Source: an uncultured Candidatus Saccharibacteria bacterium
Lineage (GTDB): Bacteria; Patescibacteriota; Minisyncoccia; Phycocordibacterales; UBA2100
Direction: 5' to 3'
DNA: 64,000 nt
Assembly (NCBI GenBank): GCA_964586255.1
Contig: CAZPGE010000003.1
Span: 2,537 to 66,536, forward strand
Part shown: positions 1,502 through 25,750 of the stretch, in pieces
How the letters are laid out: each line of letters starts with the position of its first letter
Numbering within the stretch: the stretch's first letter is position 1
The notes under the pieces: model-generated
What the model was told of the DNA's origin: nothing
Databases searched by the model: none
What the model saw: only the letters and a program-made list of their open reading frames with translations
Program-made: the position numbers and the translations under genes

Positions 1502-1502
1502 T

Positions 1503-4874: not shown

Positions 4875-4916
4875 GAGAGCGATGGATTACACTACGACAC
4901 CTGGTGCTATATAATA

Positions 4917-5510: not shown

Positions 5511-5513
5511 CAT

Positions 5514-6811: not shown

Positions 6812-6836
6812 AGTGTATTCCTATACAATACCAGTC

Positions 6837-8036
6837 ATGGGAAAGTTTGCCGTGAAATATACGATAATCCCCTTCTTCATTGCGCTTGTGTTCGGAGTCG
6901 GCTATTTCATCTTCGGTGCTAAGCCGTACGCTGAAGCATCCTCCATCGCCCGCGGCGTGGAGGACTTCAAGGAACTATCTCAGCGCTTCGTCGCTCTTTC
7001 AGAAAAGAAGAGTGCAGAGTATGCGTTTGAGATACTCCGACGCGCGGAGTTACCCCCGAATACGGATTTGCATCTGTTGGGGCACGTCGTGGGAGATGAA
7101 TTGTACAAACAGCAGGGGATAGACGGTATCGTCTTATGTACGCAGGATTTCCGCAACGCATGTTCGCATTCCATAGTCATAGGAGCACTCAATGAATTTG
7201 GCGGAGAACCCGCCCTTGCACGCATCCGCGACGCGTGCCGAAGAGCGCCAGGAGGTTCCGGTGCATATACCATGTGTTACCACGGGTTGGGCCATGGCAT
7301 TCTCGCCTTTTATGGGTACGATCTGGAGCCTACAATTGCGCTTTGCAAACAAGCCGGCACTTTGGAATATCGTGAGCGCGAATATATAGAGTGTGTGGGG
7401 GGAGCCGTAATGGAGCTCATGGGCGGTGGTGGTCATGACAGAAAGTTGTGGCTCGCGAGTAGGTCACGATACTTGAGTGGGGATACGCCTCTTGCGCCAT
7501 GCACGAGCGACGTCATTCCAAGTGAAATAAAACCGCTGTGCCTTGTCTACCTCACGCCACGACTCTGGGAATTGGCCGGCATCGACTTAGGACGTCCGGA
7601 CCCGTCACTTTTCTCGAAGGCATTTGCGATGTGCGACACGCTCTCTCGCTCACGGCAAGAATTACGTGCCGCATGTTTCGGAGGCTTCGGAAAAGAATTC
7701 ATTCCACTCGCAGGTGCGCGAGACATTCGAGGCGTGGACCGGTTTTCTGATGATGCGTATGCTCAAGCGATTGAGTGGTGTGGGTATGCACCTGCAGAAG
7801 ATGGTCGCACGGCATGTATTTCAGAGGCTTTGGCATCGATCTTCTGGGGCGGAGAGAATGACCCAGAGGCGAGTTTCCGGTTTTGCGCTCTTGTTTCTGA
7901 GTCTGGAATGCAAAGCGCATGCTACGGAAGCCTCGCGCGTAATATTCAGGACTACACGGAAGGTTCCGTGCGAAACGCGCTGTGCGCACGTATACCAGAA
8001 AAGGAGCGTATAGAGTGCACAATCTCAGGTATATGA
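6837..8036 (+). CDS. N-terminally anchored Cys/His-rich repeat protein (family member 1 of 5)
   Basis: The ORF-track start at 6813 is GTG; the ATG at 6837 precedes a TM helix (IIPFFIALVFGVGYFIFG). Recurrent C...C...GYxHGxGHG motifs (MCYHGLGHGILAFYGYD). About 20 Cys, mostly in pairs. Confidence 0.7.
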   Translation: MGKFAVKYTIIPFFIALVFGVGYFIFGAKPYAEASSIARGVEDFKELSQRFVALSEKKSAEYAFEILRRAELPPNTDLHLLGHVVGDELYKQQGIDGIVLCTQDFRNACSHSIVIGALNEFGGEPALARIRDACRRAPGGSGAYTMCYHGLGHGILAFYGYDLEPTIALCKQAGTLEYREREYIECVGGAVMELMGGGGHDRKLWLASRSRYLSGDTPLAPCTSDVIPSEIKPLCLVYLTPRLWELAGIDLGRPDPSLFSKAFAMCDTLSRSRQELRAACFGGFGKEFIPLAGARDIRGVDRFSDDAYAQAIEWCGYAPAEDGRTACISEALASIFWGGENDPEASFRFCALVSESGMQSACYGSLARNIQDYTEGSVRNALCARIPEKERIECTISGI

Positions 8037-9088
8037 CACGACGTACCCTTATAGCGATTGCACTCTGCGTTGTATTTGGGGCTGGTGGCATCGCAGTACG
8101 CCAGTATGCGACCGAGACCCAGAGCTCGTTGGCGAACAGGCAGCCGACTGAGAGCGAGAGAATATGGACGGAAAAAATACGTGCGCTTGGTGGCAAAGCG
8201 GCATACGCTTCGCTTGCAAAAGAGATAGAGGGTATGGCGCCGGAGGTTCAGCACACGAGCGCGCATGCATTTGGCGCAGCCCTCTTTGCTGTCGAAGATA
8301 ATGCTGGACTATCTGTGTGCGACGCGCGCTTCTCGTATGGGTGCTTCCACGAGTTCATGGGTAATTCGATCGCGTCGCACGGGCTCTCTGTCGTCAACGA
8401 ACTCAACGAGGGGTGTATCCGGGTACTAGTCAAAAGCCCGCTCTCTTGCCAGCACGGCATAGGACATGGAATATTAGCCTCTCTCGGATACGACGAGGAG
8501 TCCCTCATTACGTCACTCGGGGAATGCGCCAAACTTCCATACAGTGACCGTATAGGGGGATGCTATGGCGGTGTGTTCATGGAATACAATATGCAAACGA
8601 TGCTCGGTAAACAAGGGCACTTACGGTCGGCAGATTCCGAGGAGGGTTTGTACAAGCCGTGTGTCGGCTTGGAATCGAAGTACCATGCCTCGTGTGTATT
8701 TTGGCAGCCGCAATGGTGGCACATTGCAGTGCTGCATGCTGAAAGCAGCGAAGAATCGTTTGCGCAGCTTGGTACCTACTGCAGAGGAATGACACATACG
8801 AAAGAGTTACGTCGCGAGTGCTTCCAGGGTATTGGCAATATTACGAATCCGGCCACCGATTTCGATGTAGTGCGCTCGCGAGAACTATGCGATGCCACTT
8901 CTTCAGACCACCTTGAACGACTCTACTGTAGGGCGTATGCCGCCAACTCCCTCTTAAATGGGGGCGGAGGAAAAATCGGTGATGGGGATGCGTTGTGCGA
9001 CGGCTTACCCGAAAGTGAGCGAGAGTTCTGTCTTGCGTATGCGCGCAATGAGGCAAATTCAGCGAATGTGTTGGAATCTCCTCTATGA
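8033..9088 (+). CDS. N-terminally anchored Cys/His-rich repeat protein (family member 2)
   Basis: Start ATG overlaps the upstream stop (ATGA). TM helix (LIAIALCVVFGAGGIAV). Motifs include SCQHGIGHGILASLGYDEE and CDARFSYGCFHEF. Confidence 0.7.
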   Translation: MTRRTLIAIALCVVFGAGGIAVRQYATETQSSLANRQPTESERIWTEKIRALGGKAAYASLAKEIEGMAPEVQHTSAHAFGAALFAVEDNAGLSVCDARFSYGCFHEFMGNSIASHGLSVVNELNEGCIRVLVKSPLSCQHGIGHGILASLGYDEESLITSLGECAKLPYSDRIGGCYGGVFMEYNMQTMLGKQGHLRSADSEEGLYKPCVGLESKYHASCVFWQPQWWHIAVLHAESSEESFAQLGTYCRGMTHTKELRRECFQGIGNITNPATDFDVVRSRELCDATSSDHLERLYCRAYAANSLLNGGGGKIGDGDALCDGLPESEREFCLAYARNEANSANVLESPL

Positions 9089-10248
9089 AGCCAGTCTTCA
9101 CGGTGAGCGGCTTTCTCATAATCGCCGCATGTGCTTTTGCGCTTATATTTTTTGCTGATGTTCGCTCTGCGCATAGTGAAGCCCAGCGCATCGTGGAGAT
9201 TTGCTCAGGAGAATCAGCACATGCCGAGTGTTACGAACGGGAGGTTCCGAGATTGCTTCCCGACTATTCACTCACGCAGGCCTTCGACGTCATACGTCAG
9301 ATTCGGTTAATCGACCCTGCGTACCAATTTTGTCACGTGCTTGCGCATAAACTCGGAGAGAGAGTCGTCGCTGAAGACCCCGACAAATGGATAGATGCCA
9401 TCCCGCTCAATCCGACGGATGGCCTGTGTTCAAATGGATATATTCACGGGGTGTTGGGTGGCCGATTTCGAGCAGAGGTTCTTGAACCGGCGGCTCTCAG
9501 AAAACTCATACCAGACTTCACGAGAGCATGCGCGTCGAGGAAAGAGTGGCGCTCCAGCGAACTGGACCGCGCCATATGCAGCCACGGCATGGGGCATCTC
9601 TATATGTTTATCACCGATGCGGACATTCCGCTTTCCCTTTCGCTTTGTGAAGACACGATGCCTGAGCAGCTGAGGCGCGTATGCCGCGAGGGTGTATACA
9701 TGCAAATTTATCAGCCGCTCGAACCGGATGACTATCTACTCATTGAGCGCATGCCCATAAAGCCGACGAAAGAAACACTCCGTTCCTTCTGTGCACGATA
9801 CACGAAAGATGAGTATGAGGGCGCATGTCTGCGAGAGGGCTGGCCATTTTTCCGAGAAGAGCTAAAGACTGGCGAAGGCATAACGAAATTTTGCTCAGGC
9901 CAGCCAAATGACCGAGAAGAGATAGCGTGCTTCGAATCCACGCTCGCACTCTCGGGCAGATTCAATCTAGGGAATCAGGCCAAGGCGCTCTCGCTGTGCA
10001 ACGAGGTTGCGGATAAATGGAAGGCGATGTGTTATTCGAGTGCGGCACGCGCGATACTTGAAGAGGACAGGGCAGAAGGGAAAAAGGCTGTCGCATTTTG
10101 TAAGAGCGCGGCAAACGATCAGCAAGACGAGTGTCTCGGGCAGCTTGCAGACACTGCCAGCTTCGTTTTCGGCAACTCCTCCGAACAGAAAAGGTTTTGT
10201 TCTCTCCTCCCAGTCCAGCTTAAGGAGCGTTGCCTGGGACAGCCATAG
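9085..10248 (+). CDS. N-terminally anchored Cys/His-rich repeat protein (family member 3)
   Basis: ATGA overlap with the upstream gene. TM helix (FLIIAACAFALIFFA). Motifs include QFCHVLAHKLGE, CSNGYIHGVLGG and ICSHGMGHLYMF. Confidence 0.7.
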   Translation: MKPVFTVSGFLIIAACAFALIFFADVRSAHSEAQRIVEICSGESAHAECYEREVPRLLPDYSLTQAFDVIRQIRLIDPAYQFCHVLAHKLGERVVAEDPDKWIDAIPLNPTDGLCSNGYIHGVLGGRFRAEVLEPAALRKLIPDFTRACASRKEWRSSELDRAICSHGMGHLYMFITDADIPLSLSLCEDTMPEQLRRVCREGVYMQIYQPLEPDDYLLIERMPIKPTKETLRSFCARYTKDEYEGACLREGWPFFREELKTGEGITKFCSGQPNDREEIACFESTLALSGRFNLGNQAKALSLCNEVADKWKAMCYSSAARAILEEDRAEGKKAVAFCKSAANDQQDECLGQLADTASFVFGNSSEQKRFCSLLPVQLKERCLGQP

Positions 10249-10260
10249 ACGACGTCGATC

Positions 10261-11943
10261 CTAGAATTTCGCTCCTTCGTGAACTAGGAACTCACGCAGG
10301 TCGTGGGCGATGCGATCGCGGTGTTCGTCAAAGCGTATGTCCGAGTACGTGACAAGGGCGGGGAGAGTACCGTTACTTGTAGAGCGCGCCTTAGGTGTGA
10401 TGTACAGCATTTCTCTCGAAGTATCTGAGGCGAGAAGAAGTGTTGGGAATGCAGCGTGTGTGAGAAATAGCGTTTGCGCACTGAGGTCATGAGGTGCTCC
10501 CTCCGCATACGTATCAAGATTGTTTTGTGTAATACGTACGATATTGGCAACAATTAAATCGAGTCCCGCAGACCCACTGCTCCATAGAAGCACAATTTCC
10601 TCAAGCTCACGGAGTTCTCCTGGAGAATTCGCTTGCGTCAGCACTTCGATAAGTGCTTCGCGTGTGTACACATATGCGTCTGACTCGTACCATACGTCAC
10701 CGGTAGAAAGGAGCGCTGAGCGATACGTGCGTGCAATTTCAGGGTGACGCTCCGCGAACTTTGCGCTAGCGCGCACCGCCTTTGCTCTCGTAAGATCCGT
10801 GCCGACATCGGGGCACAGATAGAACATCGTGGGGTTAATACGACTGAAACGCATGTCGTACTTTTTAGCGAGATATTGCAGCATTGGCGCCTTCGTATTT
10901 TCTGTGGGAGAAAAGATCACATCACCCACATACCACAGCGGAGCGATACCTAGGGGCTCCTCATTTCCTACAATGACGACATGGGGGTGGGGTAGTTCGC
11001 GAAGGCACACACTTTGCGTGAGGACAATGGGAGTCGAATTAGTAAATATGGGGGACGCCCTTTTTGTGAAGGTCTCGGCGTACAGCGTTCTCACCGAATC
11101 TATTAGAGTCCGGGACGCAGTGGATACACGCGGCGTCTTTGCGGCCGAAAGTGGAAATGCACGGCCAAGTATGAGCGAATCGGGATAACAATTCTCGATG
11201 CGGCCTTTCAGGCATGCATCGAGTTCCTGCGACTGACTTCCGAGTCTCTCAAACTCGCTCTCTATGCTGCGCGAAGTATCCAGCATGCTTTGGACTGAAA
11301 TGCTGCCACCGAATCCCTGGAATTGAGCCTTCTTTCCTGCCGTTATGAGCTCGTATGTCTTACGGAAATACGTACTGTCTTGGCGGCCAGCGGCGAGCGC
11401 GCGTCTTAGAGACGCATGATACAAGTCTCCATCTGTATCCGTACCGGATGCAATAAATGTACGCCGCGCTTTCTCAAGCTCAGCAAGCGACAATAAAAAG
11501 TGAATCGGATAGAGGCTGCGTATGGCAGATGTTTCCTGTGCGGTCATTTGTACACCCGCCAACTCATCCATGACTTCAGCGAGTTGGTGTGTAGAATCTT
11601 CAAGAAGTTGCGGGTCGCTTCCGGCAGCACTTAAAAGCGGTGCGCGACTCGCAAGCGTACGCGCGTAAGCAAGACGAAGAGCATTTCGGGCCGCAGTCGT
11701 AGATGTTCTCATGCCGTCCTCAGCTTCGACAAGACCGCCATGAATTCTGAACGATTTCCCTCGATACACGACGACCTCCTCTGTGCTCATCGTTTGAAGC
11801 ACAGAAGAGAAAAATGTGTCTGCGGCAGCCTGTTCATGTCGGTATCGGACGGCCGAAGAGATGGCACTCGCGGCTGCGAGGCCGAGAATAGCGTAGGCGA
11901 TATACGTGCGAATCCGGGTACTCATGGCACTGTAAGCATACAT
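10261..11943 (-). CDS. Large N-terminally anchored hypothetical protein (paralogue A)
   Basis: 560 aa. N-terminal TM helix. Shares length, architecture and motifs (ALRLAYA...; HFLLSLAELEKARRTF versus DFLEELANLEVARRQF) with 11977..13650. Confidence 0.6.
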   Translation of the reverse strand: MYAYSAMSTRIRTYIAYAILGLAAASAISSAVRYRHEQAAADTFFSSVLQTMSTEEVVVYRGKSFRIHGGLVEAEDGMRTSTTAARNALRLAYARTLASRAPLLSAAGSDPQLLEDSTHQLAEVMDELAGVQMTAQETSAIRSLYPIHFLLSLAELEKARRTFIASGTDTDGDLYHASLRRALAAGRQDSTYFRKTYELITAGKKAQFQGFGGSISVQSMLDTSRSIESEFERLGSQSQELDACLKGRIENCYPDSLILGRAFPLSAAKTPRVSTASRTLIDSVRTLYAETFTKRASPIFTNSTPIVLTQSVCLRELPHPHVVIVGNEEPLGIAPLWYVGDVIFSPTENTKAPMLQYLAKKYDMRFSRINPTMFYLCPDVGTDLTRAKAVRASAKFAERHPEIARTYRSALLSTGDVWYESDAYVYTREALIEVLTQANSPGELRELEEIVLLWSSGSAGLDLIVANIVRITQNNLDTYAEGAPHDLSAQTLFLTHAAFPTLLLASDTSREMLYITPKARSTSNGTLPALVTYSDIRFDEHRDRIAHDLREFLVHEGAKF

Positions 11944-11976
11944 TTTTTCCCGTCTTCGGGCACTTTTCCCCTAAGG

Positions 11977-13650
11977 TCAGTTTGTATCGAGATCGAATGA
12001 GCGAAAGAACCGCATGTATGAAATAGCGTCGGTCGTGGACAGAGTCTCATTCGAGAGTTCGGAGAGCAGCGCATATGGTTGCACGTCGGCAGACAAGGTA
12101 TTTGCTGGGAAGATTTGGTCGGTACCGTGTAAGGTGATGTTGAGAGAATTCGGCACGAGAGATAAGAAACCGCTTCGCGCAAAAAATAAATATGTCGCAT
12201 CAAAATCAATCGCTGCTTCGGGGGGGAAATGCAAATGCTTGGTCTCGTATGTATTGATGTCGCGCACCACACCCAGGATTCCGTCGCTCTTTGTGCGCAT
12301 GCGGAGCCACAACGAGCGAACATCATGCGAAATGGACTCCGGGAAGTCTGGGCTTTCCGAAAGTGTCCGCGCGTAGGTGAGATATGTCTCGACGTCGGCT
12401 GTTGTGATTATGTAAGCGGAGGCAAACGTGTTCTCAAGGCGCTCGAGCTCGGTGGCAAGGTTTCCTGAAGCCCTCATACTCAAGGTCTGGCGCAATGCAA
12501 AGTCCTTCACGGCATACGCTGCCATTACAGTCCCGAGGTCTGCTTGGGCCCCCACACATTCATAGTACGAGAGCGAGCTCATGTACACATACGGAATATG
12601 ATGAGCCGCAAAATATCCTATATACGGCAGTCCCGCGTATGGAGCACTTTCTACAAAGAGAATGTCTCCCACAAAAAGAGGTGAGGGTAGGGTTCCGCTG
12701 CCATTGTCTCGCATAGAAAAGAGTGGAGCCGTGCTGGAGTTCAGTGGCGTACATGCACTGTCGGGGAGTAGAAGTAGTTGCGAAGAGGTAAATCGGTAGC
12801 CGGAGCGCTCAAATATGTCGAGTGCACGTCCGGCGAATGTACGTGCCTCCGGATGCACAGGAGCAGCGAAGGTCGTCTGAAATTCTGGTAGGAGAATTTC
12901 AGTAGACGTGCATGCGCGGACGTGGCCTCGGAAGCATGTGAAGCGATTGCGCATGGAATTCGCTACATTGCCAGCATCTTTCTCGAGCTGGTCGAGTGCG
13001 TCAATAAAGTCGTCTCTACTCACGATTGATTGCGGGGTCGCAAAGCTTGGCGCGTCCAGAGGGACGGCCTTCTTAAACGCACGCTCAAATGCCGCGCGGT
13101 CTCTTTGAAAGGCATGAACCGTAGATAAGAGCTGAATTCGATAGCGCCTTGCGCTCTCGTCGTCGCCCACATTGAGGAATTGTCTTCTGGCCACTTCGAG
13201 ATTTGCAAGCTCTTCGAGAAAGTCGATGGGATACAAAAAGTGTTGTACAGAAAAAGTCTGATTGGAGCGTGTTTGTCGCACGGCCAGTTGTGATGCGGTA
13301 GAGCGGAGATTGGTTACGGAAGCTCGAAAGAAATCGATATCGATGTCGGGCAGCGCGAGTAGTGGATTGTTGCGCGCAGCGGATTTTTCGTACGCGAGTC
13401 GGAGTGCGGTGCGCTCTACTGCTCCCGCGACAGGCCCCGCTTCGTTCGCAACGGCGCCGAGCGATACGCGATAGGATACTCCGCGTATAGATACGGTCTC
13501 TTCGATGTGAGCATCTCGAAGAGCATTTGAAAAAAATGCCACCTCCGTGCGTTTTGCAGAGATTACTGAAACGAGGAGAACAAATCCGAAAAGTGCAAAG
13601 AAAAAAAGAGGGGCACGCACGAAGCGTTTCGACGCGAGACAAGCACGCAT
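11977..13650 (-). CDS. Large N-terminally anchored hypothetical protein (paralogue B)
   Basis: 557 aa. N-terminal TM helix (LFFFALFGFVLLVSVI). Tandem paralogue of 10261..11943. Confidence 0.6.
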   Translation of the reverse strand: MRACLASKRFVRAPLFFFALFGFVLLVSVISAKRTEVAFFSNALRDAHIEETVSIRGVSYRVSLGAVANEAGPVAGAVERTALRLAYEKSAARNNPLLALPDIDIDFFRASVTNLRSTASQLAVRQTRSNQTFSVQHFLYPIDFLEELANLEVARRQFLNVGDDESARRYRIQLLSTVHAFQRDRAAFERAFKKAVPLDAPSFATPQSIVSRDDFIDALDQLEKDAGNVANSMRNRFTCFRGHVRACTSTEILLPEFQTTFAAPVHPEARTFAGRALDIFERSGYRFTSSQLLLLPDSACTPLNSSTAPLFSMRDNGSGTLPSPLFVGDILFVESAPYAGLPYIGYFAAHHIPYVYMSSLSYYECVGAQADLGTVMAAYAVKDFALRQTLSMRASGNLATELERLENTFASAYIITTADVETYLTYARTLSESPDFPESISHDVRSLWLRMRTKSDGILGVVRDINTYETKHLHFPPEAAIDFDATYLFFARSGFLSLVPNSLNITLHGTDQIFPANTLSADVQPYALLSELSNETLSTTDAISYMRFFRSFDLDTN

Positions 13651-13930: not shown

Positions 13931-15196
13931 TCAATGCCGTACAATTCTTCGAATCTTTGTGCCCGGTACGAGTGTAAGGTGTTCACATGTAAGTGGCAGG
14001 TAACGCGCAGAGGCGACCCCCTCCGCGTACGACATGAAAGGCCCGACGCGTATGAGCGACGAAATATCGGCGGCAAACACATCAAGTTTTACATCGGCAC
14101 GCAATTCGATATGGAGGGCGAACTTTAACTGTGGGCCAGACGGAGTTTCAACCTCGGAATAGTGGAGCTCAAACACATCTGAAACCTGCGAGGGGAATAG
14201 TCTGAGCACGCGCGCTATTTCGTCTGCACGCAACAAGCCACCGGGGATTTTAATGAAATCCATATCAGTGCGGCCAAGTACCGTAAATGACCACATCCCA
14301 TGTTCGTGACAGGGCGCCTCCATGATGCGTATCGTGTCACCGATGCGGAAACGAATAAGTGGAAAGGATGCCGGCTCTCCGGGGTATGTCGTAACTAAGA
14401 GATCACCTTCCGCGCCCACGCTCGGCTCGATGATGTTGCCGCTCTCGGCGTCGAGCAGTTCCAAGTAGTGTGTCTCTTTCGGGTGGTAATGGGCGATTGG
14501 TTCAAGAAGTGTAAGTGGTCGACATGGCATGCCCATATGCGCATCCTCGATTTCGCTTGAATTGTACGATTGTACGATAGTGGCATTGGGGAATGTATCG
14601 TGCATGTACTGTATTTGTGCACGGCTGCACACCTCCCCGGTCACTTCAATAAATCGAATTTCCGTATTGTTACCGAGCGCCTTCATTTCTTCTCCGATAT
14701 CGCGCACGTGGTATACAAATGCCGAAAATGCGTCTGCACCCGCCGCTTGCGCGAGTCTCGCCGACGCGCGCGGCTCTCTCGGGTCGAGGCATAGTACGTG
14801 CGGGGAACCGCCGTGCTCCTTTTGAAACGTTTCGTGCCAATGGGGCATCAAGGGTACGGTGAATGCCAGGAATGGTCTCTTGAAGTCATGGAAACGGAGT
14901 CGGTAGTCCATGCCTCGCACGTGCGTGCGAGGGGAAAAGAGTGGAATTTTGCCGCTTGTGCCGGACGATGCGCGCACGTGGTCAAGATTGGAAAGTGGAA
15001 TGAAGGATCGTTCCGCGAGTGCTTTGCGGGCAAGTGCGTCCTTTGTGAGAATCGGAAGCGCGCGCCAGCCGTCCATATCTTGGAGGTCGAGCGCAGGGGC
15101 ATCATGCGATAGACCATACAACTCGCGATAGAACGTGTTGTTGCCTGACCGTGTCGCGCGAGCAGCCAGGGCGTACAGGTCTTTTTGGGAAAGCAT
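13931..15196 (-). CDS. Adenylate-forming enzyme of the PaaK / coenzyme-F390-synthetase-like (ANL) family
   Basis: P-loop SSGTSGKIPLF, A7-like LIRFRIGDT, hinge-region GRTDMDFIKIPGG. 421 aa. Confidence 0.7.
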   Translation of the reverse strand: MLSQKDLYALAARATRSGNNTFYRELYGLSHDAPALDLQDMDGWRALPILTKDALARKALAERSFIPLSNLDHVRASSGTSGKIPLFSPRTHVRGMDYRLRFHDFKRPFLAFTVPLMPHWHETFQKEHGGSPHVLCLDPREPRASARLAQAAGADAFSAFVYHVRDIGEEMKALGNNTEIRFIEVTGEVCSRAQIQYMHDTFPNATIVQSYNSSEIEDAHMGMPCRPLTLLEPIAHYHPKETHYLELLDAESGNIIEPSVGAEGDLLVTTYPGEPASFPLIRFRIGDTIRIMEAPCHEHGMWSFTVLGRTDMDFIKIPGGLLRADEIARVLRLFPSQVSDVFELHYSEVETPSGPQLKFALHIELRADVKLDVFAADISSLIRVGPFMSYAEGVASARYLPLTCEHLTLVPGTKIRRIVRH

Positions 15197-17635: not shown

Positions 17636-18111
17636 AGATTCTCGGGGAGCGGTTTATTGACGACGAGTGAGAGCACTCTGAACGGGCCAGGATCTCGTTG
17701 GAGTCGAATCAAAGCGAGCAGTCCTCCTTGTGTTTTGCTGATATCGTATCGGGGAGTCTGGGCACGATCCAGGGTACTGGTGCTTTCCGCGATGCTGACA
17801 TTTGCAAAATTGTTTACGGCGTCGAAAGAAATCCTAAATGGCGCCCTCGCCTCCGGAAATCCGGGATACGCGACAAGAATGGTAATCTCTCTTTGAGTGA
17901 GGTCAACGCTCTCCACGATGCCGCGAATGCTAATGATTGACGTGGCGCTCTTTGGAGGTAATCCTCCCACCGTCCCCATCGATTCTATGAAGGGCGACAT
18001 CATAAAGTATGTGCTCAGTAGTCCGATGGCGCATCCACAAGTGATGCTCAGAATCGTGGTGCTTTGCATACACTCAAGTATATCGCGGTTGCGGATAAGG
18101 TAGGAAATCAT
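17632..18111 (-). CDS. Small N-terminally anchored hypothetical protein (possible paralogue of the previous gene)
   Basis: 159 aa. TM helix. Overlaps its neighbour by 4 nt. Confidence 0.4.
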   Translation of the reverse strand: MISYLIRNRDILECMQSTTILSITCGCAIGLLSTYFMMSPFIESMGTVGGLPPKSATSIISIRGIVESVDLTQREITILVAYPGFPEARAPFRISFDAVNNFANVSIAESTSTLDRAQTPRYDISKTQGGLLALIRLQRDPGPFRVLSLVVNKPLPENL

Positions 18112-19987
18112 GTCACAGATTGCACAGTGCTACACTTGGGGTACAGGTATGTGGCGCATGTCACTTTCTACAGCAGTTGTCATGTACGGCGGCGCACTTA
18201 TGGCGCTGCCGCTCATTGTCGCTCTTCTCAATACGGTAGGGATGGGTCTCGTCGGGGGATGGATACCCCTCCTTGCGCTCGGCGCAGCTTCAGCTGTTGC
18301 AGCGCTCGCGCTCCTCACAAGAAAGACGACGATAGCGCTCCCGCGAAATATTCATATTTTGGCCGGACTCCCCATTCTCGTTGTGTCGGTGGCATCGCTC
18401 GTAGGTCGACCATCGCTTGAAACCATGGTATTCGGAGTCTCGCTTGAGACAGGCACCGTAGGCTCGTTTTTTTTGTTTGCGAGCGCTATAGTATGCGGCT
18501 CTCTCATGGCACGCGCAAACATGTTGCGCCTCCTCGATATTTTTTTGGGTGCCTCTGCGGCAGGTTCCGTTATAACGTTTACCCGCATAGCTTTCTTGGG
18601 ATGGGAGCATGTTGAACTCATGAACAATGTATCGCTCATTATATGTGCGGCCCTGATTGTCGCAGTCTTACGAGCTGAAGGAGCACGCGGGAGAGCACGT
18701 CTTGTATATGGTGCATGCGCGTTCTTGTTTAGCGCCCTTCTCTTCTTCACATCTAGTGGGAGCACCAACTTGCTTTCGGTAATTACCTTGCTCGCTATAA
18801 GTGCGTTCGTGGTTTGGCGTAGCAACATCGAGCATATTCCGTGGACCGCGGTAATCTCCACTCTTTTTATCGGAGTCTTATTGCTTGTTGGTCACGTGGG
18901 GAAATTCATACCGACATCACCTGATGTGAGACCCTCCTTGTCGGTGACTTCGCGTTTAGCCGGTGCGCTGTATTTCCAAGACATACAAGGCGCCTTGTTG
19001 GGAATTGGCCCAAATGGATTTCACTATGCGTGGGAGAAGCATCGTGTACCTGAGCTCAATGCTTCGCCGCTTTGGCAACTTTCTCCTCACCACGGTTATT
19101 CGACAGCCGCGACGTTCGCTGTGACGATGGGAATGCTCGGATTCCTCGCATTTTTTCTTATGACACTTTCATTCGTCGTGTTTACCGTACATCGACTTGT
19201 GTGTTTATTCAAAGACGGCGATGCTGAGATGCTCACGCACGCACTCCCGGCTGTAGCGCTTGCACTTTTTGCCCTCGCAGCGATGTTCACGGAGGTCCTC
19301 GAGTCCCCGTTATTTCTCATCGGTGGGGTAGCAGTCGGTATGTCTGTACGCGCGCTAGAATCGGAAGTGCGCATCATACCTATCGACTTTTCATTTGGTG
19401 GGTCGCGTCTTGTTGCAGGACTTATTGCGATAGTGGCACTCGCCATGTCTGCACTATTGCTACAGGCTTCGATGCGCCCGGTGATTGCCGAGAGATTTCA
19501 TGCCCGGGCAGTTGCCCATGCCTCCGTGGGGGACGCCATAGCACCAGAATTGTTTGAACGTGCGGCGCGCATCTGGAAAACACCTCGCTATAGTCTTGAT
19601 GCATCTCGGGCTTTTGTGGAGCGTGCTCGCGTAGCCGGAGAGGGGGGCGATACATATGGTCTACGCGTCTCAGTCGAGAAGGCCATTTCGTATGCGGGAG
19701 GCGCTACTGATTCTGATCCGAATAATTATGAAGTATGGCTGTATCGAGGTTCACTTTTTATGGCACTTATCTCGAGTGGATATCCCCAAGCGGCAGAAAA
19801 TGCGTACGCTGACATTCAGGAGGCAAAAATGCGAGCTCCTGCGCGTCCAGATGTGCACTACCAAGAGGCGCTGCTTGAGACGGCGCGTGGTAGAAAAGTG
19901 AATGCCCGCATTGCTCTGGAAAGAGCGATAGAGCTCAAGCCCGATTACGCCGAGGCGCTTTCTCTTTTCAAATCATTGTCTGAATAA
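18110..19987 (+). CDS. Polytopic membrane protein with a C-terminal TPR-like domain (O-antigen-ligase/Wzy-like architecture)
   Basis: At least 10 predicted TM helices, followed by ~170 aa of helical repeats (EVWLYRGSLFMALISSGYPQAAENAYADIQEA...KPDYAEALSLFKSL). Confidence 0.45.
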   Translation: MSQIAQCYTWGTGMWRMSLSTAVVMYGGALMALPLIVALLNTVGMGLVGGWIPLLALGAASAVAALALLTRKTTIALPRNIHILAGLPILVVSVASLVGRPSLETMVFGVSLETGTVGSFFLFASAIVCGSLMARANMLRLLDIFLGASAAGSVITFTRIAFLGWEHVELMNNVSLIICAALIVAVLRAEGARGRARLVYGACAFLFSALLFFTSSGSTNLLSVITLLAISAFVVWRSNIEHIPWTAVISTLFIGVLLLVGHVGKFIPTSPDVRPSLSVTSRLAGALYFQDIQGALLGIGPNGFHYAWEKHRVPELNASPLWQLSPHHGYSTAATFAVTMGMLGFLAFFLMTLSFVVFTVHRLVCLFKDGDAEMLTHALPAVALALFALAAMFTEVLESPLFLIGGVAVGMSVRALESEVRIIPIDFSFGGSRLVAGLIAIVALAMSALLLQASMRPVIAERFHARAVAHASVGDAIAPELFERAARIWKTPRYSLDASRAFVERARVAGEGGDTYGLRVSVEKAISYAGGATDSDPNNYEVWLYRGSLFMALISSGYPQAAENAYADIQEAKMRAPARPDVHYQEALLETARGRKVNARIALERAIELKPDYAEALSLFKSLSE

Positions 19988-19991
19988 CGGT

Positions 19992-21344
19992 ATGCTCATG
20001 CAATCTCGAAATATCGGCTTCGGAGTGGGCGTGACCGTACTCACGTGCGTACTCGCAGCGTATGCGGTAGTTTCGAGTCTTTCTCCGAAAGTCTTTACGA
20101 TTACGCTCACCGAGTCAGGATTTGTGCCCTCAAGATTGCTCATAGATAAGGGAGATACCGTCGTCTTTATATCTGAGGTCGAGGACGCATTCTGGCCGGC
20201 ATCGGACTCGCATCCCACCCACGGTCGCTATCCTGAATTTGACCCAGGTCGCGCGCTCGTTCCGGGAGAGTCATGGGAATTCACGTTTGAGAAAGCCGGT
20301 GTGTGGACATTCCATGATCACCTGAGGACGGGTCTGAGAGGCAAGATATTGGTCATGGGCGCAAAAGGTGAAAGCAGCAGGAATTGTCTAAAGGTACAAA
20401 CCGGGACCATACAGCCTGAGTGCTGGGAAGCCGAAGTTGTATCTGTCGTGCGCACAAGAGGTACGGAAGCGGCATTCGACTCGATACGAACATGGTATGA
20501 AGAGAGCAGTGACTTCCGGAGAAATTGTCATGATGTTATGCATATTGTGGGCGTTGCGGCATATGCCGAATATGCCGGGAAAGGACTCGTTACGATACGA
20601 GACGAGACGTCGTATTGCGGGCATGGCTTTTATCACGGATTTGTTGAAAAGATGCTTTTGGAACGCGGGGCAGGCCAGTACGCGGAGGCCGATGCGTATT
20701 GCACGGATCTCAAGGTCATGAAGCCCGAGGCGGCCGGATCGTGTTATCACGGTATCGGTCACGCGGTATTCGATTCAATCGATGGTTCTTTGTGGGGTAA
20801 TGACGTCGGCATGGTCGACTTCGCGCTTGGCGTATGCCAAGCGGCACTGTCAGGCGAGTGGGAGCGCGTGCGTTGTGGTTCCGGCATCTTTAATGCGCTG
20901 GCGAATGCGTATAGTGCAAGAACCTATGACCTCACGTATCTCGATAATAAGCCGCCCTCTCTTTGCGACAATGTGCCGAAAGCGTATCAAGACTTTTGCA
21001 ATATGGAACTTGGCAATGGATATATCCGAGATAAACATTGGGGGCAGGCACAGGAAATCGATTTCATTCGACGTATCGAAAATCAGGAAGTTCGCGCTGC
21101 GATCATCGTGGGATATATGGACACTGAGGTCAAACGTTCTATAGATGCTGTTGACGTAGGGGCATTCGCGAAGTTGTGCCGCTCCTTCTCAATAGAGCAA
21201 GATATTCATGCGTGCGTTGTAGGAGTTCATTCGGGTTTGCGGGGGATCGGCGAGCCCGAAAACGAGGATGGGCTCGTGGAATCGTTTTGCAGGCTTTTGG
21301 ATGGTCCATACCGCATGACGTGTACCGAGAGTACTCGCCCATAG
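19992..21344 (+). CDS. Anchored fusion protein: cupredoxin-like domain plus Cys/His-rich repeat domain (family member 4)
   Basis: TM helix, then a cupredoxin-fold signature (GDTVVFISEVEDAFWPASDSHPTHGRYPEFDP...WEFTFEKAGVWTFHDHLRTGLRGKILV), then YCGHGFYHGF and SCYHGIGHAVFD motifs. Confidence 0.7.
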   Translation: MLMQSRNIGFGVGVTVLTCVLAAYAVVSSLSPKVFTITLTESGFVPSRLLIDKGDTVVFISEVEDAFWPASDSHPTHGRYPEFDPGRALVPGESWEFTFEKAGVWTFHDHLRTGLRGKILVMGAKGESSRNCLKVQTGTIQPECWEAEVVSVVRTRGTEAAFDSIRTWYEESSDFRRNCHDVMHIVGVAAYAEYAGKGLVTIRDETSYCGHGFYHGFVEKMLLERGAGQYAEADAYCTDLKVMKPEAAGSCYHGIGHAVFDSIDGSLWGNDVGMVDFALGVCQAALSGEWERVRCGSGIFNALANAYSARTYDLTYLDNKPPSLCDNVPKAYQDFCNMELGNGYIRDKHWGQAQEIDFIRRIENQEVRAAIIVGYMDTEVKRSIDAVDVGAFAKLCRSFSIEQDIHACVVGVHSGLRGIGEPENEDGLVESFCRLLDGPYRMTCTESTRP

Positions 21345-21364
21345 TGTGCAATAATGGCCTCGAT

Positions 21365-21751
21365 ATGCGCGCGGTATTCAGTATCTTGATAGTGCTTGCA
21401 GTCGTCGCGCTCGTAGGTGCCCTCGTGTATACGAGCACCCCATCCAAAGTAAAGATAGTCGACTTTCAGGGACAAGAAAGAGTCGATATCGTGCTGAAAG
21501 AAGACGGTTTCGAACCGCGCGATATCCGCGTGACTCGGGGCACCGTGGTGACCTTTACTACAACGCGTCCAAACAAATTCTGGCCGGCTTCCAACGCGCA
21601 TCCATCGCATGATGTGTACCCGCAGTTTGACCCGCAGAAGGTGCTGAGCCCAGAGGAATCATGGTCGTTCACATTTGACGTGGTGGGTGTGTGGGGTTAC
21701 CACGATCACGTGCGTTCGTATTTTACCGGGGTCATATATGTGGATGAATAA
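21365..21751 (+). CDS. Small anchored cupredoxin-like protein (stand-alone paralogue of the N-terminal domain of 19992..21344)
   Basis: Starts at Met 64 of ORF 21176..21751 (MRAVFSILIVLAVVALVGALVY). Contains RGTVVTFTTTRPNKFWPASNAHPSHDVYPQFDP...WSFTFDVVGVWGYHDHVRSYFTGVIYV. Confidence 0.65.
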   Translation: MRAVFSILIVLAVVALVGALVYTSTPSKVKIVDFQGQERVDIVLKEDGFEPRDIRVTRGTVVTFTTTRPNKFWPASNAHPSHDVYPQFDPQKVLSPEESWSFTFDVVGVWGYHDHVRSYFTGVIYVDE

Positions 21752-22946
21752 AAAGATATTGGTACGCGTGGGGGCAGGTGCGGTGCTCTGTATTGCGCTG
21801 GCCGCTCTGCTTTTTTCATACAGAGACAATTCGAAATCGACGCTCGCGCCATGCCGCAAGGAAACAGTCGATACACAGCAAATAGAATGCATTTTCCGCT
21901 CGATTGAGCGTGAGATTCTTGACGACGGGATGTCAGCGGGTATGGTGCTTTTCTCGCGTGCATACGCTGACTTCCCTTCATTCGTAGCTCAAGGATGTCA
22001 CAAGCAAGCTCACAGAGTCGGAGATATCGTGTATGCGCGTCTTTACACGTCCGAAGGGGGAATGGACGCACTCGATTTTCCGCAAGAGACAACCGCGTGC
22101 GGATACGGATTTTTCCACGGGTTTCTCGAACACTTGATACAAGACAGACCCGACCCCAAGTTTGTCGACTCGATATGTACAAACTTGAGCACGCGTCTCA
22201 GTGGGACGATGGGTTCCATAAAGAGCATATGTTTTCATGGGAGCGGACATGGATTTGCGCTCGCTCATGCAGAGACATTGCCCCGCTCTGCGTGGGGAAA
22301 TGTGCGGGAATTCACGGTGGATGCTGCCGCGATGTGTGACAAGCTTACTGAGGCCGATGAACGTTCGGTTGAGGAATGTAAGGAGGGCGTGTTCAATGTG
22401 TTGGTAGAGTGGATGTCCCTGAAGCAGTACGGCTTTTCCTACGATCAGGCGCGGCCATTTGTTCCATGCGACGCGGGGCCGAGAAGCTTACAGAGTGCGT
22501 GTTACTACGAGATGGCGCAGAAATTGGATGGACTCGCGGAGCGCGACCCTGTCAAGCTTGCACGTATTGTCGCCGATATTCCCGATGAACGATTGAGACT
22601 CATGTCATTCAAAGTCGGTATTGCGGGCATCGTCCAAAATACGATACAAGACAAAGGTGCTTCGGAGAGGATACTTTCTGCATGTGCCACATTGGATAGG
22701 CGATTTCTCAATCTGTGCCTGGAGAATTTCGTACATGGATTATTTGAACATGGTGCACCGCAGGAAGAATATATCCGTGCACTCGGCATGTGCAGGCTCG
22801 ACGCTGTTGTTGAGAATGATCTTGCATCGAAATGCTATGTTGCTGTCATGGAGCGTTTGCCCCGCTTCTACTCTCAAGACCAGCAGAGAAGTATTTGCAC
22901 TGAGTTTCCGCCAGAATTCCGCTCGGATTGCACGCGAAGCTTATAA
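21744..22946 (+). CDS. N-terminally anchored Cys/His-rich repeat protein (family member 5)
   Basis: Start ATGAATAA overlaps the upstream stop (alternative ATG at 21738). TM helix (GAGAVLCIALAALLF). Motifs include ACGYGFFHGFLEHL and CFHGSGHGFALAH. Confidence 0.7.
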   Translation: MNKKILVRVGAGAVLCIALAALLFSYRDNSKSTLAPCRKETVDTQQIECIFRSIEREILDDGMSAGMVLFSRAYADFPSFVAQGCHKQAHRVGDIVYARLYTSEGGMDALDFPQETTACGYGFFHGFLEHLIQDRPDPKFVDSICTNLSTRLSGTMGSIKSICFHGSGHGFALAHAETLPRSAWGNVREFTVDAAAMCDKLTEADERSVEECKEGVFNVLVEWMSLKQYGFSYDQARPFVPCDAGPRSLQSACYYEMAQKLDGLAERDPVKLARIVADIPDERLRLMSFKVGIAGIVQNTIQDKGASERILSACATLDRRFLNLCLENFVHGLFEHGAPQEEYIRALGMCRLDAVVENDLASKCYVAVMERLPRFYSQDQQRSICTEFPPEFRSDCTRSL

Positions 22947-22978
22947 ATCGGCCTGAGTCCCATGATAGCCTGCACAGT

Positions 22979-23539
22979 ATGAGTACAAAGGCGACACCGT
23001 ATATCTATTTTTCGGGTGTTTTGCTCGGCACCCTTCTTAGTGTTGGAAGTGCTTCCGTTTTGGCTCCTCAGCATGTGCTCGCCCATTCACTTGGCGCATC
23101 TTTCGAAGCGACCTCCTCGCCGTACCGCGTCGACGTGGGGTATGACCCTGTCGACTTTTTGGCCGGAGACGCAAGTCGATTTGACTTCGACTTGCGCGAA
23201 GAGTCCGGCCCTATCACTGACTACGATTACGTGTGGGTCAGAATAACGAAAGAAAAAAAGACGCTTTTTGCCACGGGCATCGAGCGGCAGACGCTCGGAC
23301 CCACGACACTTGTCTATACATTTGATACACCCGGTGATTACGTGCTGCATGTAAGTTACCGACAAGGCGCAGACGTGATGGCGGAAGCCTCGTTTCCATT
23401 CACGGTTCTCTTAAGCGACTCCGGTCCCGCGATTCCTGCGGATGCCCTCATGGGGTTTGGAATTGGTGCCGTCCTCTCCATTGCTGCAGCATCTCTCTGG
23501 CTCAGACTCCGCCGCGTACCAATGCGAAACGTGCTCTAG
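22979..23539 (+). CDS. Hypothetical secreted protein with a C-terminal TM anchor
   Basis: Internal ATG precedes a signal-like segment (YFSGVLLGTLLSVGSASVLA). C-terminal helix (GFGIGAVLSIAAASLWL) followed by a basic tail. Confidence 0.45.
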   Translation: MSTKATPYIYFSGVLLGTLLSVGSASVLAPQHVLAHSLGASFEATSSPYRVDVGYDPVDFLAGDASRFDFDLREESGPITDYDYVWVRITKEKKTLFATGIERQTLGPTTLVYTFDTPGDYVLHVSYRQGADVMAEASFPFTVLLSDSGPAIPADALMGFGIGAVLSIAAASLWLRLRRVPMRNVL

Positions 23540-23862: not shown

Positions 23863-24966
23863 ATGATGGAAAGAAGTGACATTGCCGCACTCTACAACGA
23901 GATTCTCGATGAGTTTGTTGCACACCCACCCGAAAAGCCGCAGGAGTACTGGATACGCATGACCTCGGGTACGACGACCGGTAGGCCTTTCCTCACGATG
24001 TGGCACAAGAAAAGCGCCGCTGATTGGCCTCATGCAGAGAGCATGCGTCGTTTTATTGTTGCATACGGATTGCTTGCGACTCGCATGAGCAACGTGCTTT
24101 CTTTTCGCATCAATACTGAAAACGAAGGTGCGCTCGTCCTTCCGTTCGATGCCGGTGCGCTCGAACCGTGGGTCGAGCGCCTCCTCTATGATTTTGCACC
24201 CGACAGTTTTTACGCAATCCCGTCTTTTGCTGTCCGCATCTCCGAGCATATGAGCGAAGAATCCCGGAGCAACGTACACACGCTCGGTTTTTCGGGTGAA
24301 CCAATGTCAAAGACGCTTAGAGATTTGTTTATGTCACGATTCCCAAAGGCGAGGCAGGTTATTACATTCGCCACGTCCGAGACCGGAGTCATCACAGGAT
24401 TCCCGTGCGATTATCTTTCTCCGAATCGATATCATCCGCGCGAGGGAGTCGTGATTGAAGTCGAGGAGCCCGACGAGCGGGGTATCGGATACCTACTTAT
24501 CAGTAAAGACCTTCTCTTCGGGAAGCGCATGGAGCGCTACAAGATTGGTGATATGGCCCGCATCGTGCCGGAAGCATGTCCGTGCGGGCAAGCGCTCACA
24601 TTTGAAGTTTTTGGCCGCGCCGGATACGATTTTATAAAAGTAGCTGGAGCAATTTTGCAGCGAGAGGAATTTGATCGTGTCGCGAGCGAATGCGCGGCAC
24701 TCTTCGACGACTACTATGCGGAGGCGGAAGCCGTCGTCGCCGACGGAAAGTTGAAGGGTAAAATAGTTCTCACCGTGTATCGGTCGAATGGCGCGCCGGC
24801 TGTTGAAGAAATTGCACGGGAATTTTCGGCGCGAATATATCTCAGTGTCTCGCAAACGCTGGAGCAGTTTGTTGCACAAGGATTGTTTCTCCCGCTCACC
24901 GTTTTAGTGAGCACAACACCCTTGGTGCGGGACGGGAAGGCGAAGAAGCTTTCGTTGCGTACATAA
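23863..24966 (+). CDS. Adenylate-forming enzyme of the PaaK / coenzyme-F390-synthetase-like (ANL) family
   Basis: P-loop TSGTTTGRPF, A7-like RYKIGDMARIVPEACPCGQ, hinge GRAGYDFIKVAGAIL. Confidence 0.7.
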   Translation: MMERSDIAALYNEILDEFVAHPPEKPQEYWIRMTSGTTTGRPFLTMWHKKSAADWPHAESMRRFIVAYGLLATRMSNVLSFRINTENEGALVLPFDAGALEPWVERLLYDFAPDSFYAIPSFAVRISEHMSEESRSNVHTLGFSGEPMSKTLRDLFMSRFPKARQVITFATSETGVITGFPCDYLSPNRYHPREGVVIEVEEPDERGIGYLLISKDLLFGKRMERYKIGDMARIVPEACPCGQALTFEVFGRAGYDFIKVAGAILQREEFDRVASECAALFDDYYAEAEAVVADGKLKGKIVLTVYRSNGAPAVEEIAREFSARIYLSVSQTLEQFVAQGLFLPLTVLVSTTPLVRDGKAKKLSLRT

Positions 24967-24967
24967 C

Positions 24968-25750
24968 ATGCATATGAGTACACCGATTGAGAATAGCACC
25001 GAGCTTGAGCAACTAATCTCGTTTGTACGCGAAAGTTCGCTCAGTGATTTCTATAGAAATAAATGGGGGACCGCGCAGACATACGGCGGTCTTCCACATA
25101 CTTCGCGCGCTGACTTCATAGCGGCCCCACTTTCCAAGCGTCGCTATAAGAAAGAGAAAGGTATGGTGAAAATCGTAGGAACAGGCGAACAAGCTTTTTT
25201 GTCCGAATGGAGCTTTACGGACATTGGACGAGAACCGTATGCACCGCATAGCACACGCCCGTTTGTCTACATGACAGATTCATATGATGCGGTAGAGAAA
25301 TCTTTGTGGTGCTATGAGAATGGCATGACGCCGCTCGTCGGAGAGAAAGACTCGGACATGGCCATCTTTGCAGCTGAGCGATATCAAATCGACTCGCTAC
25401 TCGTCGACGAACAGTCTCTTGCGAAATTTGCACCGTTTTTTTCGACACTCGAGGCACCGCTTTCCTCTATTACGATTATTGCGTCTAGCTTTTCTCCAAG
25501 CGAGCTTATGTCGCTTGAACGGTACGCCTCATCTATACGCCTGGTCCTCGCGCTGCCCGAAACAGGTGCATTTGCCGAAGCACCACTCTCACGAAACCCG
25601 GAATTCGCCCCGCTCCCGCACTGTGTAATCGAGCATGAATCGGGGATTATTCTCACGAAATTCGCACGGTATCCGACGCCAATCATTCGCTACCGAACCG
25701 ACATACACACACTACCGATTCCCGGTAGCCAGAGCTTTACGTTGCTCTAG
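24968..25750 (+). CDS. P-loop-less PaaK-like paralogue (degenerate adenylate-forming-enzyme homologue)
   Basis: Starts 1 nt after the upstream stop. About 260 aa, ending in an A7-like YPTPIIRYRTDIH. No P-loop. Confidence 0.5.
   Translation: MHMSTPIENSTELEQLISFVRESSLSDFYRNKWGTAQTYGGLPHTSRADFIAAPLSKRRYKKEKGMVKIVGTGEQAFLSEWSFTDIGREPYAPHSTRPFVYMTDSYDAVEKSLWCYENGMTPLVGEKDSDMAIFAAERYQIDSLLVDEQSLAKFAPFFSTLEAPLSSITIIASSFSPSELMSLERYASSIRLVLALPETGAFAEAPLSRNPEFAPLPHCVIEHESGIILTKFARYPTPIIRYRTDIHTLPIPGSQSFTLL

Follow-up and report, generated by a model that had tools for sequence, protein, structure and literature searches.

What might a cupredoxin do without the Cys residue that ordinarily helps to hold its copper? 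The question is raised by a tight string of plus-strand genes (positions 18110 to 23539) in a 64,000-nucleotide (nt) stretch of contig CAZPGE010000003.1 from an uncultured Candidatus Saccharibacteria bacterium; this whole stretch is referred to below as the window. The string encodes products of 625, 450, 128, 402, and 186 amino acids (aa). An earlier note on this DNA had reported that the N terminus of the 450-aa product and the separate 128-aa product share a cupredoxin-type pattern with a His-Asp-His (H-D-H) motif in place of the type-1 copper Cys. It had linked both to a family of Cys/His-rich proteins and had suggested a role in extracytoplasmic metal handling or electron transfer. Our analysis indicates that both domains have the cupredoxin fold, that the type-1 site has been dismantled and a new set of His and Asp residues is conserved in its stead, and that the link to the Cys/His-rich partner is real, though not universal. 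Our favored reading as a whole, to which we give an even chance, is that a non-blue metal site on the Cys-less cupredoxin acts together with the partner in a metal-transfer or redox module.

We refer to the Cys-less cupredoxin domain as cup and to the Cys/His-rich helical domain as CH. Motif positions in cup2 are numbered on the 128-aa protein, and those in cup1 and CH1 are numbered on the 450-aa protein. The 450-aa and 128-aa products correspond (100% identity each) to called proteins P0291 and P0001 in public assemblies. The names Minisyncoccota, Kaiserbacteria, and Parcubacteria are attached to the nearest relatives, which places the window in a genome of the Patescibacteria (candidate phyla radiation). 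The features at the center of the analysis are as follows.

19992 to 21344, plus strand: fusion gene, 450 aa, comprising a transmembrane anchor, cup1, and CH1 (open reading frame [ORF], called protein P0291, AlphaFold2 [AF2] model).
20007 to 20081, plus strand: transmembrane helix of the fusion, aa 6 to 30, with Arg6 on the cytoplasmic side (DSSP helix in the AF2 model, hydrophobic sequence).
20085 to 20357, plus strand: cup1, predicted cupredoxin-fold domain, aa 32 to 122 (Foldseek; PF13473, 18.5 bits).
20193 to 20222, plus strand: cup1 insertion motif W68-P-A-S-D-S-H74-P-T-H77 (near-invariant in alignment A2 and in the family).
20313 to 20321, plus strand: cup1 H108-D109-H110 at the beta7/beta8 hairpin tip, with Asp at the type-1 Cys position (alignments, AF2).
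20361 to 21344, plus strand: CH1, all-helical Cys/His-rich domain, aa 124 to 450 (invariant columns of alignment A2).
21365 to 21751, plus strand: stand-alone cup2 gene, 128 aa, with a transmembrane anchor at aa 2 to 23 and the cupredoxin domain at aa 37 to 127 (P0001, AF2).
21581 to 21610, plus strand: cup2 insertion motif W73-P-A-S-N-A-H79-P-S-H82 (family alignments).
21701 to 21709, plus strand: cup2 H113-D114-H115 (family alignments).
21738 to 22946, plus strand: CH2, 402-aa transmembrane-anchored Cys/His-rich helical protein, whose start overlaps the cup2 stop codon.

The stand-alone cupredoxin thus lies between two CH family members, as had been noted. cup1 and cup2 are paralogous (BLASTP, 45 of 110 positions identical [41%], E = 6e-32), and so are CH1 and CH2 (29% identity, E = 8e-23). 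AF2 models were built for cup2 from a 24-sequence alignment (predicted local distance difference test [pLDDT] score, 88.6) and for the 450-aa protein from 100 fusion homologues (pLDDT, 93.7; predicted TM-score [pTM], 0.90). In the latter model, a transmembrane helix (residues 6 to 30) is followed by beta strands over residues 34 to 122 and by 17 helices over residues 127 to 447. When the cup2 model was compared to the PDB with Foldseek, 329 matches were obtained at an E value of ≤1e-3. The best 50 of these 329 were all cupredoxin-fold domains. The neighbors included plastocyanins, amicyanin, pseudoazurins, the Nitrosopumilus purple cupredoxin, CuA domains, the CopA metal-binding domain 4f2f, and domains of multicopper oxidases (MCOs) and NirK; among the matches listed, target-normalized TM-scores were mostly 0.5 to 0.8 for single-domain targets. 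Plastocyanins and amicyanins were also the top matches of the fusion model (target-normalized TM-score, 0.7 to 0.8), and matches of the cup models to plastocyanins, amicyanin, and the purple cupredoxin had a Foldseek probability of 1.00 and target-normalized TM-scores of 0.70 to 0.80. The models therefore place both domains in the cupredoxin fold, an eight-stranded Greek-key beta-sandwich, which is the outcome that the earlier note had asked structure prediction to decide.

Profile comparisons likewise indicate homology to established cupredoxins: the family profile matched amicyanin (E = 1.7e-7) and the C-terminal domain of the NirK-like protein 9cck (E = 1.2e-7) among PDB sequences. PF13473 (Cupredoxin_1) matches both proteins over nearly the full length of the Pfam model, at scores below the gathering score of 27 bits (18.5 for cup1 and 24.1 for cup2), and some homologues carry a precomputed PF13473 match, so the family lies at the edge of that model. 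Three structures of a small, uncharacterized PF13473-type domain from Bacillus anthracis (4HCF with Cu, 4HCG with Zn, and 4HCI) are structural neighbors as well (TM-score, 0.65 to 0.69). They are not among the best 60 sequence matches of the family profile and probably lack the motif pair described below; we found no paper associated with them. From the N-terminal transmembrane helix of each protein and the conserved Cys pairs of the partner, we place the proteins outside the cytoplasm, membrane anchored and outward facing, in agreement with the location first proposed.

The ligand positions could be read against an internal ruler. Eight proteins of 700 to 1170 aa that score highly with the family profile (P0149, P0156, P0159, P0162, P0163, P0206, P0218, and P0264) contain 6 to 10 tandem classical Cys-containing cupredoxin repeats with the amicyanin-type C-x-x-H-x-x-M motif. 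In a gap-free alignment with amicyanin and these repeats (P0156, P0162, P0206, and others), the type-1 His, Cys, His, and Met ligands map to cup2 positions 72, 114, 117, and 120. Among 286 unique homologous domains, over which all residue frequencies were taken, position 72 is Phe in 56% and His in 17%, and position 114 is Asp in 90%, Asn in 5%, and Cys in 5%, the Cys cases being classical repeats; the most frequent residue accounts for no more than 26% at position 117 and 29% at position 120. The Asp of H-D-H aligns with amicyanin Cys92 and, without gaps, with the Cys of the classical repeats that the family profile finds. In the AF2 model, beta7 ends at this Asp and is separated from beta8 by a turn of just two residues (His-Leu), which leaves nothing of the classical ligand loop. 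Judged by these alignments, the His/Cys/His/Met set is missing and the type-1 blue-copper site is gone, in agreement with the lack of the canonical Cys ligand that the earlier note had pointed out.

What the family conserves instead are W73 (92%), P74, A75, S76 (95%), N/D77 (87%), H79 (94%), P80 (94%), H82 (93%), Y85, F88 (98%), D89 (99%), G108, W110, H113 (95%), H115 (94%), and G122. The F-W-P-A-S, S-H-P-(T/S)-H, and H-D-H motifs picked out in the earlier note are all included, and their conservation across the family is far from chance. Positions 73 to 84 form an insertion of 10 to 12 residues that begins right after the old His-ligand position and is a gap in the classical repeats; the F88-D89 pair is common to the family and the repeats. 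An exhaustive search of 1.84 billion cluster representatives (clusters at 50% identity) with the family profile found the insertion and H-D-H together, at a fixed spacing of 37 residues, in about 140 of the best 150 representatives. Classical cupredoxins surround one copper with His and Cys ligands from neighboring strands. Since the insertion starts directly after the old His-ligand position, the neighbor of the Cys position, its H-P-x-H likely lies next to H113-D114-H115.

We propose that these proteins make up a large undescribed cupredoxin subfamily, anchored on the outer face of the membrane, in which a dismantled type-1 site would have been replaced by the [N/D]-x-H-P-x-H insertion, the F-D pair, and the H-D-H motif at the tip of a tight beta7-beta8 hairpin. 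This set would bind one metal ion at or beside the old copper pocket in a non-blue, type-2-like site with three or four His ligands and Asp. Copper is the most likely metal for a cupredoxin scaffold whose conserved candidate ligands are all His or Asp. The fold, the missing type-1 ligands, the conserved motif, the outward orientation, and the pairing with CH are what the analysis shows; that a metal binds, which metal it is, how the site is arranged, and any catalytic role are points that we infer.

Comparison with better-known proteins helps to place the proposed site. With amicyanin and plastocyanin, cup has in common the Greek-key beta-sandwich, a G-x-[WY]-x-[YF] beta7 strand, a C-terminal G-x-[IV]-x-V strand, and the F-D pair, which is F41-D42 in plastocyanin; it differs from them in the H-P-x-H insertion, the membrane anchor, the helical partner, and the loss of the type-1 set. 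Cys-free His copper sites in beta-sandwich proteins include the H-x-H CuB site of PmoB, CopC, YcnI, and the histidine brace of lytic polysaccharide monooxygenases (LPMOs). These proteins resemble the proposed cup site in their all-N/O, non-blue coordination and extracellular beta-sandwich. No sequence similarity to them was detected, and cup itself lacks an N-terminal His brace.

The partner is an equally unusual domain. In the AF2 model of the 450-aa protein, CH is all helical. It has about seven conserved Cys pairs. The members of a pair are 11 to 14 residues apart, with one pair 30 residues apart (C179/C209) whose two members are lost jointly across CH domains; such a pattern would fit a single disulfide in each helical hairpin. 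Five His residues (H180, H184, H215, H253, and H257) are arranged as HxxxH, H, and HxxxH on three neighboring helices. Across 149 CH domains, these residues are near-invariant both with and without a cupredoxin nearby, and in the same comparison Glu219 was enriched in cup-associated CH domains. The cluster resembles a metal-binding or active site, the second of the pair, and we treat it as a putative one. CH has no Pfam or NCBIfam match, none of 160 homologues of CH2 contains a Pfam domain, and a 51-sequence CH profile found no relative among PDB sequences. A Foldseek search of the PDB with the fusion model at an E value of ≤1e-3 returned no non-cupredoxin neighbor other than a poor whole-chain match to EfeO. 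LanC-like and type-3-copper-like readings of its C-x-x-G-x-x-H-G and HxxxH motifs were considered, and nothing supports either.

How tightly are cup and CH linked? We surveyed 80 species-level loci for a CH gene within 5 kb of cup: the two were fused in 19, adjacent in 18, and near each other in 2, and 41 had no CH. Orthologues thus do not always adjoin Cys/His-rich genes, the point that the earlier note had asked to check, with 37 of 80 loci fused or adjacent and none of the 11 archaeal loci associated. Among the closest relatives, 26 of 30 are associated with CH. Fusions of about 470 to 520 aa account for 57 of the top representative matches, and a search with the fusion as a query added about 100 more such clusters from several Patescibacteria classes, including Kaiser-, Yanofsky-, Nomura-, and Chisholmbacteria. 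A two-gene form, cup and then CH, is present in related genomes L001 and L004, with an 11-nt overlap in both. Moreover, the subtypes co-vary: fusions with a CH2-like domain carried a cup2-like cupredoxin in five of five cases, and those with a CH1-like domain carried a cup1-like cupredoxin in five of six. The fusions elsewhere and the co-varying subtypes indicate that the cup2-CH2 gene pair in the window represents, in split form, what other genomes encode as one fused gene, and the existence of split and fused forms argues for physical cooperation (the Rosetta stone argument). The pTM of the fusion model suggests that the two domains pack against each other in a fixed way. Read from gene arrangement and sequence, the functional link that the earlier note had drawn is real and strong, resting on fusions, overlapping gene pairs, and matched subtypes, but it is not universal. 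In this lineage, cup does not act alone but is an obligate partner, fused or translationally coupled, of a disulfide-stapled five-His helical domain, the pair probably forming an extracytoplasmic metal-transfer or redox module. Runs of fusion genes also occur, with five consecutive cup-CH fusions in locus L043 and four in L042.

The family is large and taxonomically concentrated. The profile search gave 12,192 matches at an E value of ≤1e-3 (ordinary cupredoxins included), 5,050 at ≤1e-10, and 470 at ≤1e-30. When each GTDB species was represented by one genome and searched for the peptide G-x-W-G-[YF]-H-D-H, 195 loci were found, mostly in Patescibacteria; the others were in DPANN archaea (Woese-, Pace-, Nano-, and Aenigmatarchaeota) and, in small numbers, in Actinomycetes, Chloroflexota, and other groups. 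A plasmid collection contained no homologue of the cup family. The fold call itself is already known, in that automated annotation names these products “cupredoxin domain-containing protein,” and we found no paper on this cupredoxin family in the literature; the replacement of the site and the partnership with CH appear to be undescribed.

One branch of the family, found in DPANN and some candidate phyla radiation (CPR) genomes, carries a Cys-containing loop insert and has neighbors of a different kind. A DoxX/MauE-like membrane protein is encoded directly downstream of the Cys-insert cupredoxin in 8 loci, and 3 loci also encode VKOR (PF07884, E = 5e-27), while 5 encode a DsbA-like thioredoxin (E = 2e-36). 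This thiol-redox context is confined to the Cys-insert branch. In DPANN archaea (L038:4908-8160, from Woesearchaeota; also L039, L068, and L052), a Cys-insert H-D-H cupredoxin heads a cluster that continues with a DoxX/MauE-like protein, VKOR, a MarR-type regulator with a transmembrane segment, a DsbA-like thioredoxin, and a CxxC membrane protein. The arrangement resembles an operon for disulfide formation that includes a cupredoxin-like gene.

Several observations weigh against a metal site on cup that works together with CH. About half of the family's loci (41 of 80) have no CH partner within 5 kb, and the five-His cluster is equally conserved in CH paralogues without a nearby cupredoxin. 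No gene for a copper transporter, oxidase, or chaperone was found in the window, and around fusions on long contigs there were likewise no neighbors with a known copper function. Asp114 is Asn in about 5% of members and may thus have a structural role instead of binding metal. The alignments that set the motifs beside known copper ligands, with H-D-H on the MCO H-C-H motif, H79 on a His of the MCO H-x-H motif, and (by hhalign) H113 on the type-2 ligand His135 of domain 1 of Sinorhizobium NirK, are weak (domain i-E of about 9; hhalign probability, 7.5%). Three such alignments disagree by one or two residues on which His matches which ligand, with hhalign placing H115 either beside the Cys position or on NirK His145, and exact equivalence to MCO or NirK ligands was therefore set aside. 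Finally, the conserved aromatic residues W73, Y85, F88, W100, W110, and Y112 would also fit a non-metal ligand-binding surface.

This last point leads to the rival that survives best, which we consider unlikely but still a credible alternative: that cup is a metal-free beta-sandwich adaptor or ligand-binding module, comparable to a carbohydrate-binding module, that positions or regulates CH, its conserved His, Asp, and Trp residues binding a polar ligand or the partner, and that the function resides in CH, which could be, e.g., an enzyme or a receptor directed at host or cell wall polymers. The richness of the conserved set in aromatics besides His and Asp fits such a role, as does the retention of the CH His cluster without cup. 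A beta-sandwich followed by helical repeats is a common layout in polysaccharide-active enzymes, and the large tandem arrays of CH paralogues are typical of diversifying surface proteins; up to seven CH genes occur within about 10 kb (L012, L024, and L042). However, four invariant His residues and an Asp at or beside the ancestral copper pocket are most simply explained as a metal site, and the Pfam, NCBIfam, Foldseek, and PDB sequence searches revealed no similarity to any carbohydrate-active family.

Two further alternatives strike us as distinctly improbable, and about equally so. In the first, the domain is a metal-dependent (copper or other) electron sink or oxidant for extracytoplasmic disulfide formation, serving the 14-Cys CH domain in cis, or DsbA and VKOR in organisms without quinones and respiratory chains. 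The roughly seven conserved Cys pairs of the partner favor this idea, and so do the DoxX/MauE-like, VKOR, and DsbA-like genes beside the Cys-insert subfamily. That subfamily, though, may simply need a disulfide of its own; no Dsb, VKOR, or DoxX gene is found near the cup-CH loci or in the window, and some CH paralogues have these Cys pairs although cup is absent.

In the second, cup and the five-His domain together form an inter-domain all-histidine (multi)copper center. The result would be an extracellular enzyme of a new class, either an oxidase or one that reacts with oxygen or thiols. In MCOs, the His residues that flank the Cys in H-C-H bind the trinuclear cluster, and cup would supply the face that holds half of that cluster. 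The resemblance lies in H-D-H (like H-C-H), in a His a few residues past the type-1 His position that recalls the MCO H-x-H motif and NirK His100, and in the attachment of cup to a second domain with its own His cluster. In contrast to MCOs and NirK, each protein has one cupredoxin domain, no type-1 site, and a helical partner: where those enzymes have at least two cupredoxin domains, four H-x-H-type motifs, and a type-1 site, cup has only H-[DN]-H and one upstream His. Because the five-His cluster is kept without a cupredoxin, the cup and CH sites need not be joined.

An EfeO-like component of iron uptake, in which a metal-oxidizing or metal-binding cupredoxin is joined to a helical metal-binding domain, is a still weaker candidate that we doubt strongly. 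The order of the domains is the same, both systems are extracytoplasmic with metal-type motifs in the helical part, and PF13473, which cup matches below threshold, is the EfeO-type cupredoxin family. Foldseek also aligned the whole fusion to Escherichia coli EfeO (7wgu_A, E = 1.6e-4, 427 columns), but the superposition was poor (root mean square deviation, 20.9 Å; TM-score, about 0.2). By hhalign, cup matched the EfeO Cup domain weakly (E = 5.6e-4; probability, 30%), and both H-P-x-H and H-D-H are absent from EfeO. Homology of CH to the M75/imelysin-like domain of EfeO, which carries an HxxE metal site, was rejected by profile comparison (hhalign E = 0.45; probability, 0.1%), and no EfeU or EfeB homologue is encoded nearby.

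Last, an ordinary blue-copper electron carrier of the plastocyanin or amicyanin type is effectively excluded, even though these are the best PDB relatives and the Joint Genome Institute (JGI) labels many homologues “plastocyanin”: with Asp for the Cys ligand in a domain that has no Cys, mostly Phe for the N-terminal His, unconserved C-terminal His and Met positions, and a two-residue turn for the ligand loop, the type-1 site is gone and the label is a misnomer. Of the two functions suggested at the outset, electron transfer of the plastocyanin type is unlikely for the same reason, three of the four type-1 ligand positions being unconserved.

Beyond the cup and CH genes, three further features of the window, all on the plus strand, bear on the setting of the module.

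22979 to 23539, plus strand: 186-aa protein with a signal peptide, the invariant His36 (nt 23084 to 23086) immediately following the predicted A-x-A cleavage site, an Ig-like beta domain, and a C-terminal transmembrane anchor.
18110 to 19987, plus strand: 625-aa polytopic membrane protein with C-terminal tetratricopeptide repeats (TPRs), ending 4 nt before the fusion gene.
6813 to 10248, plus strand: three tandem, more distant CH paralogues without a cupredoxin domain (tblastn and hidden Markov model searches, E = 4e-16 to 1e-29), none with a Pfam match.

Homologues of the 186-aa protein adjoin cup/CH genes in 10 other loci (e.g., L001:9597-10157, L024:7701-8234, and L020:8198-8737), and the layout of signal peptide, Ig-like domain, and C-terminal transmembrane anchor is that of the family. 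In eight homologues, an invariant His directly follows an A/V/S-x-A/G cleavage-type motif, from which the cleavage site is taken, and the mature protein probably begins with a free N-terminal His. The protein has weak filamin/Ig-like matches and no similarity to CopC, YcnI, or LPMO models. Its layout (signal peptide, putative N-terminal His, beta domain, and C-terminal transmembrane segment) recalls that of histidine-brace copper proteins of the YcnI/CopC type. In the proposed module, a small Ig-like protein, probably with a free N-terminal His, would thus often be encoded beside the cup-CH pair. The 625-aa membrane/TPR protein was dropped as a component of the system, its homologue preceding cup in close relatives only (L001, L002, and L007).

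The remaining genes of the window are housekeeping genes, including those for GAPDH, RpiB, Rpe, transketolase, gyrase, PheT, and DnaE. Seven large ORFs (181 to 1123 aa) that flank the CH array at 98 to 6811 (plus strand) and 10261 to 13650 (minus strand) have no Pfam match at an E value of ≤0.01. The ORFs at 13931 to 15196 (minus strand) and 24968 to 25750 (plus strand) have no Pfam match either, and the ORF at 23863 to 24966 (plus strand) has a weak adenylate-forming (AMP-binding) match (E = 1.5e-4). A gene with a weak AMP-binding match also lies upstream of the cupredoxin-like locus in L001, near a solute-binding-protein gene, with no established link to the present finding. In L087 and L089, the fusion genes lie among unannotated strings of 330- to 540-aa genes. 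In the 721-kb CPR genome of L087 (L087:1-13359), about 12 consecutive genes without a confident Pfam match, among them the queried fusion and a stand-alone cupredoxin-like gene, lie at this locus, in the same position upstream of GAPDH-RpiB-Rpe-transketolase.

Cupredoxins are the textbook case of one fold with several copper sites, blue, green, red, and purple, and a natural family that has swapped the whole type-1 site for an invariant set of four His residues and Asp would extend that list by one. Members of the family come mainly from CPR bacteria and DPANN archaea, whose genomes are tiny and for which, to our knowledge, almost no redox or metal biology has been described. “Plastocyanin” labels in metagenome annotations would wrongly imply electron transport capacity when their metabolism is reconstructed. 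The recurrent fusion provides a first functional handle on a “hypothetical” helical family with five His residues and seven disulfides. If the inter-domain copper center were true, it would mean that an enzyme class is widespread in CPR bacteria and some other phyla thought to be almost without redox metabolism.

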